A DNA stretch of 64,000 bases from assembly GCF_048403405.1 (NCBI RefSeq), contig NZ_CP183129.1. One strand, written 5' to 3'. This DNA comes from Escherichia coli. Its GTDB lineage: Bacteria; Pseudomonadota; Gammaproteobacteria; Enterobacterales; Enterobacteriaceae. Positions 16,137-19,100 of this stretch are shown piece after piece. A program made the position numbers. Within the stretch, counting starts at the first letter, position 1. Every line of letters begins with the position of its first letter.

Positions 16137-19100
16137 TTAATTCGTAAAACGTGCTACCGATCACATTAAGAAATCAGCGCTTATTTTTTCGCTCCCGGGC
16201 ATTACGCAATGAGCAGCGAACTCAGGCATACATCAAGAATAGAGAGGGATTGCAGTTTGCAGCAATCCCTCTTTGCAGACCTTTAATCCGTTGACTATAG
16301 GCGCTAACATAGCGCCTCATTTTTTTGCGGGTGATGATATGCGTGTGTTACTGGCACCGATGGAGGGAGTGCTTGACTCTCTGGTGCGTGAATTGCTGAC
16401 CGAAGTTAACGACTACGATCTGTGCATCACCGAGTTTGTCCGCGTGGTGGATCAACTGCTGCCAATAAAAGTCTTTCATCGCATTTGCCCTGAGCTACAA
16501 AATGCCAGCCGGACACCTTCCGGTACGCTGGTGCGCGTGCAGTTGTTAGGTCAGTTCCCACAATGGCTGGCAGAGAACGCCGCCCGTGCGGTGGAGTTAG
16601 GTTCCTGGGGCGTGGATCTCAATTGCGGCTGCCCGTCGAAAACGGTTAACGGTAGCGGCGGTGGGGCGACGTTACTCAAAGATCCTGAACTCATCTACCA
16701 GGGGGCAAAAGCGATGCGTGAAGCTGTACCAGCGCATTTGCCCGTCAGCGTAAAAGTGCGTCTGGGCTGGGACAGCGGTGAGAAGAAATTTGAAATCGCC
16801 GACGCGGTGCAACAGGCTGGCGCTACGGAGCTGGTGGTGCATGGGCGGACGAAAGAGCAGGGTTACCGCGCGGAGCATATTGACTGGCAGGCGATTGGCG
16901 ATATTCGCCAGCGGCTGAATATTCCGGTGATTGCCAACGGTGAAATCTGGGACTGGCAGAGCGCGCAACAATGCATGGCGATCAGCGGCTGCGACGCAGT
17001 GATGATTGGTCGCGGGGCGCTCAATATTCCCAACCTGAGCCGTGTGGTAAAATATAACGAACCGCGAATGCCGTGGCCGGAGGTGGTTGCTTTGCTGCAA
17101 AAATATACCCGTCTGGAAAAGCAGGGCGATACCGGGTTATATCACGTAGCGCGGATTAAACAGTGGTTGAGTTATTTGCGTAAAGAATACGATGAAGCAA
17201 CGGAATTATTTCAGCATGTTCGGGTGTTGAATAATTCCCATGATATTGCAAGGGCTATTCAGGCAATTGATATCGAGAAACTCTAAGAAACCATAGTGAT
17301 GTTTTTTGACAATGTGTTAGCTCTTTATCAATAGGCCGCACGGTTGTTTGGTGGCGTCAAAATCGCCGAGGCGTTCCCTGAAGGCCGGGGCAGCCCACAT
17401 GGATGTGGGCTGAGGGCGCGTTTTACAGGGATGTTACCTCGCGCCCGACCCGGTAGCCGTAAGGGATAAGCCGAGGGCACCGCGCAGCGGCGATTTTGTT
17501 CGCCAGAGCCCGGGGGTGCAGGGGGCGGCGGCGATTGGTCGCCCCCTGCGCGCTCCTTGCGCCAGTGATTATATGAAGCAATGCACATGACAGGAGCGCA
17601 ACAGGATGAGAGACTGAAATATTCTCGTTATTTTCGGATCTGATGACATTAATTAATTTTAAAATATCATCTTAAATACGCCAGTCACCACCAGTAGCCC
17701 AATCAGGAAAATAATCAATACAGCCCAGAGTATAATTTTCATTGGCGTTCCTTTATTTGTGAGTGCTGAATAAGTATAGGAAAAAACGAAGCCCTTTGCC
17801 GCTATCCATAAACGATTAAGATAAATCGGAAGATATCATTCACTTAGTGTATATTTTTCTGGATATGTCGTTTTATTGCCACTGATGTATTGCCACGCGA
17901 AACTAAAAAATATATCGCAACACACGGTAATCTCCGCGCACCTTTTCTTACCTGATTATTCCCCCATGAATCGTGATTTTTTTTATCCAGCCATCGCCTG
18001 TTTTCCGCTGTTACTGATGCTGACCGGGTGTGCGCCTATGCATGAAACCCGCCAGGCGTTAAGCCAGCAAACGCCCGCTGCACAAGTTGACACCGCATTA
18101 CCCACGGCGCTGAAAAATGGTTGGCCAGACAGCCAATGGTGGCTGGAGTATCACGATAATCAACTCACTTCCTTAATTAATAACGCACTACAGAGCGCAC
18201 CGGATATGCAGGTGGCTGAACAGCGCATTCAGCTGGCTGAAGCCCAGGCGAAGGCAATTGCCACTCAGGATGGTCCGCAGATCGACTTTTCTGCGGATAT
18301 GGAGCGGCAAAAAATGTCTGCAGAAGGGTTAATGGGGCCGTTTGCTCTGAACGATCCTGCCGCAGGTACGACCGGTCCGTGGTACACCAACGGTACTTTT
18401 GGCTTAACGGCGGGCTGGCATCTCGATATCTGGGGAAAGAATCGGGCGGAGGTTACTGCTCGCCTGGGTACGGTTAAAGCACGGGCGGCGGAACGCGAGC
18501 AAACCCGCCAATTGCTGGCTGGCAGCGTAGCCCGTCTGTACTGGGAGTGGCAAACCCAGGCGGCGTTAAACACTGTCTTACAGCAAATCGAAAAAGAGCA
18601 GAACACCATTATCGCCACCGATCGCCAGCTATATCAGAACGGGATTACTTCTTCAGTTGAAGGTGTGGAAACCGATATTAATGCCAGCAAAACCCGGCAG
18701 CAGCTCAACGATGTCGCGGGGAAAATGAAAATTATTGAGGCACGGTTAAGCGCACTTACAAATCACCAGACAAAGGCATTGAAGCTTAATCCGGTCGCGT
18801 TGCCGAAAGTGGCAAGCCAGCTTCCTGATGAACTGGGGTACTCCTTACTGGCCCGGCGGGCAGATTTGCAGGCGGCGCACTGGTACGTTGAGTCATCGTT
18901 AAGCACTATTGATGCGGCAAAAGCGGCATTTTATCCTGACATCAACCTGATGGCCTTCCTGCAACAGGATGCGTTGCACTTAAGCGATCTGTTCCGTCAT
19001 TCCGCGCAGCAAATGGGCGTTACGGCAGGCCTGACGCTACCCATTTTCGATAGTGGTCGTCTTAACGCCAACCTCGATATCGCAAAAGCCGAAAGCAACT

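Follow-up and report, generated by a model that had tools for sequence, protein, structure and literature searches.

The window analysed here is a stretch of 64,000 nucleotides of Escherichia coli DNA (contig NZ_CP183129.1, assembly GCF_048403405.1) in which the spacer between dusC (yohI; 16273-17286, + strand), encoding tRNA-dihydrouridine(16) synthase, and the convergent gene yohP (17659-17742, - strand), encoding a small membrane protein of 27 amino acids, is filled by a non-coding, GC-rich, multi-hairpin block (17330-17610). This block is the dusC copy of the TRIP1 repeat, known as TRIP1c or, in the replication literature, as the replication risk sequence (RRS) RRS-dusC. Both genes were recognised from their open reading frames (ORFs) and from the RefSeq annotation of matching loci, dusC also from its translation; the dusC start given here is an upstream TTG, and the annotated K-12 gene measures 948 nt. 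A first-pass annotation made from the sequence alone had singled out the block as a GC-rich island in AT-rich surroundings, and the GC fraction is indeed 0.63-0.72 in 100-nt windows over 17350-17599, against 0.33-0.39 in the flanks. A profile of 43 copies delimits the repeat arm at 17346-17608 on the + strand, its sense being that of the G-quadruplex (G4) strand (nhmmer, E = 2.3e-74), and thus places the right end of the repeat proper at about 17608, slightly beyond the 17600 first proposed. On the left, GC-rich homology sets in at about 17330-17346, and the start of the repeat lies some 44 bp from the dusC stop (17286). It is preceded by an AT-rich edge of repeat homology, GCTCTTTA...GGCCGCAC (17318-17345, + strand), which alignments A1 and A3 show to be shared by copies from E. 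coli and Pseudocitrobacter.

The identity of the element and most of its explanation are already published, since its G4 motif, its near-identity to the K-12 copy, flanks included, and its orientation all match what has been described. The G4 motif of Pham et al., GGGGGTGCAGGGGGCGGCGG, is matched exactly and once on the + strand (17512-17531) and not at all on the - strand; the window copy is 99.2% identical over 371 nt, both flanks included, to a derivative of K-12 MG1655, and the repeat has the same orientation relative to dusC in both. A second K-12 copy occupies the lysO-aqpZ spacer. TRIP1c and RRS-dusC are named in PMC10888264 and PMC11194060; Li et al. (2024) describe TRIP1c, first listed by Rudd (1999), as a 273-bp repeat lying 43-44 bp downstream of yohI (now dusC), and place the other TRIP1 members at aqpZ-ybjE (lysO; TRIP1a), putP (TRIP1b), alx-sstT (TRIP1d) and copA-ybaP (TRIP1e). 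Two of these, TRIP1a and TRIP1c, were renamed RRS-lysO and RRS-dusC in the studies of replication risk sequences by Pham, Cox, Goodman and colleagues (2023-2026), which describe them as a pair of near-identical 222-bp repeats that flank Ter in E. coli, each about 650 kb from dif and on opposite sides of it. The window copy is this pair's dusC member: its sequence, locus, G4 motif and GC content are the same, and so is the multi-branch fold predicted for it. The first-pass annotation had offered three options for the block (another family of intergenic repeat, a structured non-coding RNA or a remnant of a mobile element), was partly right and had missed this published identity.

Published experiments in K-12 give the RRS a function at the level of DNA. 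Beside the lysO and dusC copies, the lagging strand is loaded with RecA and SSB, and their peaks are lost when the repeat is deleted. The motif GGGGGTGCAGGGGGCGGCGG blocks DNA polymerases I, II and IV in vitro and slows polymerase III in vivo (PMC11194060), and an RRS whose G4 strand is the lagging-strand template produces post-replication gaps, up to about 2 kb long, at whatever site the repeat occupies, a behaviour confirmed by single-molecule work. The G4 strand is the lagging-strand template in K-12 (Pham et al.), consistent with replichore geometry, and an inverted RRS gave no RecA or SSB peak in the published experiments. Deletion of both RRS from K-12 was obtained only together with a 200-kb amplification, such that at least one copy is conditionally essential, and removal or inversion of both alters supercoiling genome-wide. 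A 2026 preprint adds that the complementary strand, which has no G4, also triggers gaps, at reduced efficiency. Applied to the window copy, the mechanism would run as follows: the passing fork would unwind the RRS, allowing the G4-motif strand (the + strand of the window, 17512-17531) and the surrounding hairpins to fold on the lagging-strand template; the lagging-strand polymerase would halt at the folded RRS and re-prime downstream; and a gap of up to about 2 kb, occupied by SSB and RecA, would remain. The only other bacterial case of a gap programmed by folding of one strand that is cited by Pham et al. is the pilE G4 of Neisseria gonorrhoeae, which differs in being a short, single G4 serving antigenic variation rather than a 270-nt hairpin cluster, a dispersed repeat or an element linked to Ter.

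That the fold matters is apparent from the sequence of the window copy and of its relatives. The minimum free energy (MFE) of the + strand is -144.6 kcal/mol (z = -4.55, none of 200 shuffled sequences folding as well) and that of the - strand -127.9 kcal/mol (z = -3.84). The inverted repeats noted earlier are present: GCAGGGGGCG/CGCCCCCTGC (17518-17527/17540-17549) is 10 nt long and 100% complementary, and the long-range pair CAAAATCGCCGAGGCG/CGCAGCGGCGATTTTG (17358-17373/17483-17498) is 88% complementary across an interval of 109 nt; a further perfect 10-nt pair is formed by CAGCCCACAT/ATGTGGGCTG (17391-17400/17403-17412). RNAalifold, applied to an alignment of 43 non-redundant copies from Escherichia, Klebsiella, Citrobacter and Enterobacter (alignment A6), predicts 48 pairs, of which 23 have changed on both sides; 99.0% of the 2064 alignment cells are paired and the covariation score is 0.392. 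When the partners were slid by one to three columns as a control, 32-47% of cells paired, two to six pairs had double changes and scores fell to 0.03-0.09.

The resulting architecture, all on the + strand, begins with a long closing stem, P1 (17352-17505, in which 17352-17372 pairs with 17470-17476 and 17491-17505), around a two-hairpin core; helices 1-3 of P1 comprise 18 pairs by count, and in 11 of these both partners have changed in a compensatory way. The core consists of hairpin 1 (17391-17412), recognised as an inverted repeat with the AYGGAY-type loop ACATGGATGT and covarying in five of its eight pairs, and hairpin 2 (17414-17446, loop ACAGGGATGT), seen in the MFE structure and aligned to the second hairpin of the Rfam family TwoAYGGAY, with an inner pair, 17425/17434, that alternates between G-C and A-T. 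A small hairpin, CCGC-GCA-GCGG (17480-17490), sits within P1 with compensatory changes in three of four pairs. Hairpin 3 (17518-17549) is an inverted repeat with a 12-bp GC stem whose 5' strand overlaps the G4 motif; having been misaligned by MAFFT, it was folded copy by copy, and at least a dozen different, fully complementary stems were found among 34 distinct segments, always with the loop GGCG(R). Hairpin 4, GCGCTCCT...AGGAGCGC (17550-17599), covaries in three of seven pairs, and its 3' strand resembles a Shine-Dalgarno sequence. Citrobacter and Enterobacter carry CGTTCAC/GTGAACG in its place, for which reason the AGGAG of this hairpin is to be read as a helix strand and not as a ribosome-binding site. 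The AGGAG...ATG at the 3' end of the repeat was considered as the start of a leader peptide or toxin, and was rejected because the AGGAG is the 3' strand of hairpin 4; the ORF concerned has three codons in the window, and short ORFs that differ from it are found elsewhere. Four helices are thus maintained by compensatory substitution across four enterobacterial genera. Nearly all changes lead from one Watson-Crick pair to another, with 20 G-U-type and nine A-C-type cells, which is the pattern that selection for a single-stranded fold would produce. These data show that selection acts on such a fold; covariation does not tell RNA from DNA.

No credible coding frame was found in the repeat, in agreement with the first-pass annotation. 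The longest ORF is a frame of 86 codons rich in Pro, Gly and Arg on the - strand, which we rejected as a gene because one-nucleotide indels between subfamilies in alignment A6 disrupt it. Nor was any sigma-70 promoter or intrinsic (U-tract) terminator detected for the repeat; a TTGACA at 17306, considered as a -35 element, has no usable -10 box. Among side observations at the 3' tail, a weak antisense match to the Rfam family AgvB (17576-17636, - strand; 22.9 bits against a threshold of 56, E = 0.12) is probably due to chance.

The position between convergent genes and the very stable GC hairpins on both strands raise the question of whether the block might be a bidirectional terminator or 3'-end stabiliser of the REP/BIME kind for the dusC and yohP transcripts. 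Related elements do lie within terminator hairpins in other genera, as in the case of the pntB terminator of a Pseudocitrobacter locus (L053). We consider this explanation highly improbable: the U-tract that such a terminator calls for was not detected, REP sequences are unrelated to the element, the Rfam matches to the REP-derived naRNA4 lie elsewhere, and a repeat of about 270 nt with conserved loops is unlike REP units of about 35 nt. TRIP1/RRS does share with REP/BIME and BoxC a high GC content, an intergenic location, a capacity for single-strand structure and sometimes the very same spacers; it differs from them in sequence, in length (about 270 nt against about 35 nt for REP and about 56 nt for BoxC) and in copy number (one to five against tens to hundreds). 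The earlier view that the element is not a canonical REP is borne out by the absence of any REP-derived Rfam match over it, and the suggestion of a different family of intergenic repeat proved apt, the element being neither a BIME/REP variant nor a unique, poorly conserved sequence. The classical lists of K-12 repeats (BoxC, IRU, RSA, LDR, iap) do not include it, and the 2024 RRS paper states that it fits none of the usual repeat categories. An naRNA4 match in the yohD-yohF region of strain 1162C (L003 251-328; 59.3 bits against a threshold of 59.5) represents an ordinary, unrelated BIME.

When Rfam was searched at permissive thresholds, the sole match to the element was TwoAYGGAY (RF01731), which covers 17357-17496 over the full length of the model with 30.2 bits (E = 0.024), below the gathering score of 43. 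A paralogous, diverged arm from Pseudocitrobacter (L053 5670-5733) scores 49.2 bits and passes it. Loop 1 of the window copy, AUGGAU, fits the AYGGAY signature; loop 2, AGGGAU, has G in place of Y, and in other copies reads CAUGGA, CAAGGA or CACGGA. The large closing stem is also present, in the form of P1. These results make it possible that the repeat is, or is in addition, an RNA of the TwoAYGGAY class whose two ANGGA hexaloops bind a CsrA dimer; it would then serve as a sponge, or recruit CsrA as the 3' untranslated region of dusC. The Csr/Rsm consensus is (A/U)CANGGANG(U/A), and the loops ACAUGGAUGU and ACAGGGAUGU fit it; the CANGGANG loop is kept, while the stems change, in diverged partner arms that lay outside the selection imposed by our scan pattern. 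The better folding of the + strand and the excess of G-U-type over A-C-type cells point in the same direction. TwoAYGGAY was described by Weinberg et al. (2010) as a motif with two AYGGAY loops, often a very long P1 stem and an unknown function, and Gardner and Eldai predicted it to be a CsrA-binding RNA.

Several findings argue against such a role, which we regard as speculative and unlikely. The window copy itself stays under the Rfam threshold, the promoter and terminator search gave nothing, and the sense strand of the lysO copy of K-12 opposes both neighbouring genes. In the tables of an E. coli CsrA study, dusC and ybjE are given as "No" in all four per-gene columns, which we take to be crosslinking and immunoprecipitation or binding calls, and the peak coordinates of that study include none within the dusC or lysO copy. 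Near-pure Watson-Crick covariation does not favour RNA over DNA, and the exact-pattern scan fixed CATGGATG in hairpin 1, so that part of the invariance of the loop stems from how the copies were collected. The likeness of the E. coli element to TwoAYGGAY (clan CL00106) lies in the adjacent hairpins with AYGGAY-type loops, the long P1 and the multi-copy occurrence in gamma-proteobacterial genomes; the differences are the sub-threshold score, the second loop (AGGGAU), two further conserved hairpins and a G4 motif outside the Rfam model, and a documented activity that is exerted by DNA rather than RNA. Of the structured non-coding RNA proposed in the first-pass annotation, the structure is conserved, but a role as RNA is not established: the documented activity is that of single-stranded DNA in replication, and neither a promoter nor a terminator was found for the repeat.

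As to how widely RRS-dusC and its relatives occur, a megablast search of 5426 complete E. coli genomes returned 15144 places in 5425 of them (median of three per genome), the other E. coli sites being the lysO-aqpZ and alx-sstT spacers. Blastn extended the family to Klebsiella (13 places in one chromosome) and Citrobacter, and the exact-pattern scan of species-representative genomes found 45 loci in Citrobacter, Klebsiella, Enterobacter, Escherichia and Pseudocitrobacter. The repeat was not matched by any phage record, and a phage origin was dropped on that account; matches on plasmids, considered as plasmid-borne repeats, turned out to be chromosomal segments or mislabelled chromosomes. Copies of the Klebsiella or E. 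coli type in three metagenome-assembled genomes labelled Desulfacinum (L018), "Proteobacteria bacterium" (L026) and Sporobacter (L047) probably reflect bin contamination. In L026 the dusC-side flank is present but the right flank is another one, and 289 nt upstream there is a further, partial copy; this may be a TRIP1-mediated rearrangement of the kind reported by Li et al. In Klebsiella (L029-L045), a single arm is flanked by REP units, distinct from the repeat, and is sometimes in tandem (L009 2046-2322 and 2483-2759, period 437 bp). An Enterobacter soli copy (L050 3544-3739) lies about 100 nt from a C4 antisense RNA (48.1 bits, above threshold), suggestive of a prophage border; matches to isrK and c4-a1b1 near it are below threshold. 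At alx-sstT, K-12 (L014 4546-4945) carries a different GC-rich repeat, CCCTCTCCC...GGGAGAGGG...GGGTGAGGG, from that of TRIP1d strains (L002 2924-3540); it looks like BoxC or an intrastrand-triplex element, and in Enterobacter a comparable unit comes after the repeat.

At dusC-yohP, window-type flanks (at least 80% of the query) were found in 3298 of 5423 E. coli genomes, and most of the remainder have the repeat the other way round, an orientation seen in about 39% of complete E. coli genomes; no empty site was seen among the E. coli genomes, which hold two alleles only. Li et al. (2024) similarly counted TRIP1c as forward in 2952 and reverse in 2789 of 5741. Comparison of the inverted allele (L003 2930-3316) with the window (17283-17650) revealed a different spacer sequence and a span of 682 rather than 664 bp. 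The lysO-aqpZ site also has both orientations, along with internally deleted alleles that have no two-hairpin core, and at both main loci the alleles are of opposite orientation with different internal flanks. Simple inversion cannot yield such alleles, because the unique spacer sequences differ too. We infer instead that the two orientations may derive from an unstable long-palindrome doublet losing one or the other arm; independent insertions into the same terminator-like target are an alternative. An orthology between the two orientations and the two Citrobacter arms was considered and rejected, since the alleles of E. coli both fall into a single subfamily. Among individual lysO-aqpZ alleles with natural internal deletions (L061 586-753, L007 5001-5168, L060 534-674), that of strain 81009 and one on a plasmid carrying the locus are devoid of the whole two-hairpin core, and in strain SF-173 the copy is inverted and has lost about 130 nt.

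Doublets of the kind invoked here exist in relatives. In Citrobacter and Pseudocitrobacter, nearly every copy is paired head-to-head with a diverged second copy across an AT-rich spacer of 52-69 nt, and C. youngae has one such doublet within the dusC-yohP spacer itself. The doublet arms run about 60 nt beyond hairpin 4 to end in ...CTTAACTGAC(N)AGCATTA, close to the ends of K-12 IS4, TAATGCCAGTCAGTTAAG and TAATGCCGATCAGTTAAG: the 18-bp doublet ends match the IS4 inverted repeats at 15-16 positions in L023, L053, L054 and L055 and at 14-15 in L039, L056 and L058. In about 520 kb of fetched DNA, IS4-like ends with up to three mismatches occur at doublet ends and at IS4 itself, with one unexplained extra (L023 6401). 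Target duplications border several doublets, namely CACCATACGCG (11 bp, L023), TCCCTTACGGGGG (13 bp, L053, splitting the apparent pntB terminator), CTCGCCTGCC (10-11 bp, L039) and CCACCG(T/G)AGTA (10/11, L019). Those of IS4 measure 11-13 bp. The doublets, which are often inserted in terminator-like palindromes, span 625-735 bp and encode no transposase, and an IS4-like transposase was found in no fetched locus except K-12 IS4 itself. Given the IS4-like 18-bp ends and the 10-13-bp duplications, the doublets have, as judged from sequence, the anatomy of an IS4-type MITE (miniature inverted-repeat transposable element). They share this build with IS4-family MITEs and with mobile insertion cassettes (MIC231, IS231 group), from which they differ in their long arms of about 290 nt, internally structured and diverged from each other to as little as about 67% identity. 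The likeness is confined to the Citrobacter and Pseudocitrobacter doublets; the E. coli copies fall outside the definition of a MITE because they are single arms with no recognisable ends. No Pseudocitrobacter doublet was found in E. coli genomes at 80% coverage or more (best 48%), and the E. coli copies would thus be solo arms that have become immobile. The RRS and TRIP1 papers that were searched nowhere connect the repeat with transposons, MITEs, IS4 or TwoAYGGAY, and mention neither the covarying hairpins nor the target duplications in other genera.

[quoted passage not shown] The more specific proposal, that RRS/TRIP1 are domesticated solo arms of an IS4-family miniature element still intact in Citrobacter and Pseudocitrobacter, with TwoAYGGAY as the same two-hairpin core, is tentative, and we put it at slightly less than an even chance. 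The MITE origin and the link to TwoAYGGAY are new leads, drawn from relatives and not from the window itself.

A number of observations weigh against the combined picture. First, the gap-forming mechanism comes from published K-12 experiments and is extended to the window copy by identity. Second, with about 39% of genomes inverted at dusC and no peak at an inverted RRS, the orientation-dependent function is not universally maintained. Third, the G4 may not be what the whole family is selected for: the highest G4Hunter scores are 1.8-2.1 for Escherichia copies, 1.0-1.8 for those of Klebsiella and 0.9-1.2 for the main arms of Citrobacter, which score low yet keep all the hairpins, the four helices being retained in all genera whatever the score. 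What the family conserves throughout is therefore the hairpin cluster, a strong G4 being peculiar to one subfamily, in agreement with the 2026 preprint in which the G4-less strand also triggers gaps. Fourth, what suggests descent of the window copy from a transposable doublet is the homology of its arm, with no target duplication definable around it and no significant terminal repeat. A possible decayed IS4-like end, TCGGATCTGATGACATTA (17634-17651, + strand), aligns under the Citrobacter and IS4 ends (alignment A8) and was discarded as not significant, its best match of 8 nt (17644-17651) being equalled by 426 of 2000 shuffled sequences. The homology of the left edge (17318-17345) to the central spacer of the doublets is likewise weak at most. 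The suggestion in the first-pass annotation of a mobile-element remnant is therefore supported by the ends and duplications of the relatives' doublets, but not by any significant terminal repeat at the window copy.

A transposable ancestry also raises the possibility that the repeat is a functionless relic, hard to delete cleanly and spread by recombination, with incidental effects on replication. Besides the IS4-type MITE anatomy of the family in sister genera, the variation of copy number and orientation between strains and the internal deletions removing the core in natural strains and in a plasmid-borne copy of the locus would agree with it, as would the pattern of sequence change at lysO-aqpZ. 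In that spacer, K-12 (L013 3882-4357) and Escherichia sp. E1V33 (L049) differ at two positions in 476 nt (99.3-100% identity), while the flanking genes are 92% identical (about 80% at third codon positions). Because divergence (about 7-8%) resumes at both gene boundaries, this near-identity points to recent transfer, with the exchange limited to the spacer, rather than to long-term constraint. Set against a relic are the presence of at least one copy in every complete E. coli genome but one, the published K-12 double deletion that came only with a compensating amplification, the maintenance of pairing by compensatory changes in immobile copies, and the 94.4% identity of the arm to that of another Escherichia lineage in which third positions are at 81%. 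We therefore find it improbable that the repeat is functionless. In the inverted allele, similarly, identity is 97.5% for the arm and 92% for the spacer beside it, and arms evolve more slowly than synonymous sites. Near 100% identity of the repeat between distant enterobacteria has been published; part of it may reflect horizontal spread, and our comparative data qualify the published description of the repeat as simply highly conserved in sequence and position.

Elsewhere in the window, mdtQ (17876-19402) is an intact ORF of 508 codons, where the K-12 annotation has a frameshifted pseudogene; the strain is thus not K-12.

The RRS belong to a very small number of bacterial sequences for which the programming of single-stranded gaps in replication has been demonstrated, and they are conditionally essential in K-12, for which reasons genome scans should label them rather than leave an anonymous spacer. 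The present comparison bears on which of their features is selected, the hairpins being conserved family-wide and a strong G4 in some lineages only. Near-identical copies in distant enterobacteria would be better explained by transposable-element or recombination spread than by extreme constraint. With the inverted allele at dusC-yohP, gaps may fail to form at this site in many natural strains, which raises the question of how such strains manage. Were the proposed origin from an IS4-family miniature element to be true, the two orientations at both E. coli loci would represent the two ways in which an unstable long palindrome loses one arm, and gap-triggering replication risk sequences could be seeded round genomes by transposition. 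The orphan motif TwoAYGGAY would gain a concrete biological context, and may then be a structure of single-stranded DNA rather than an RNA.

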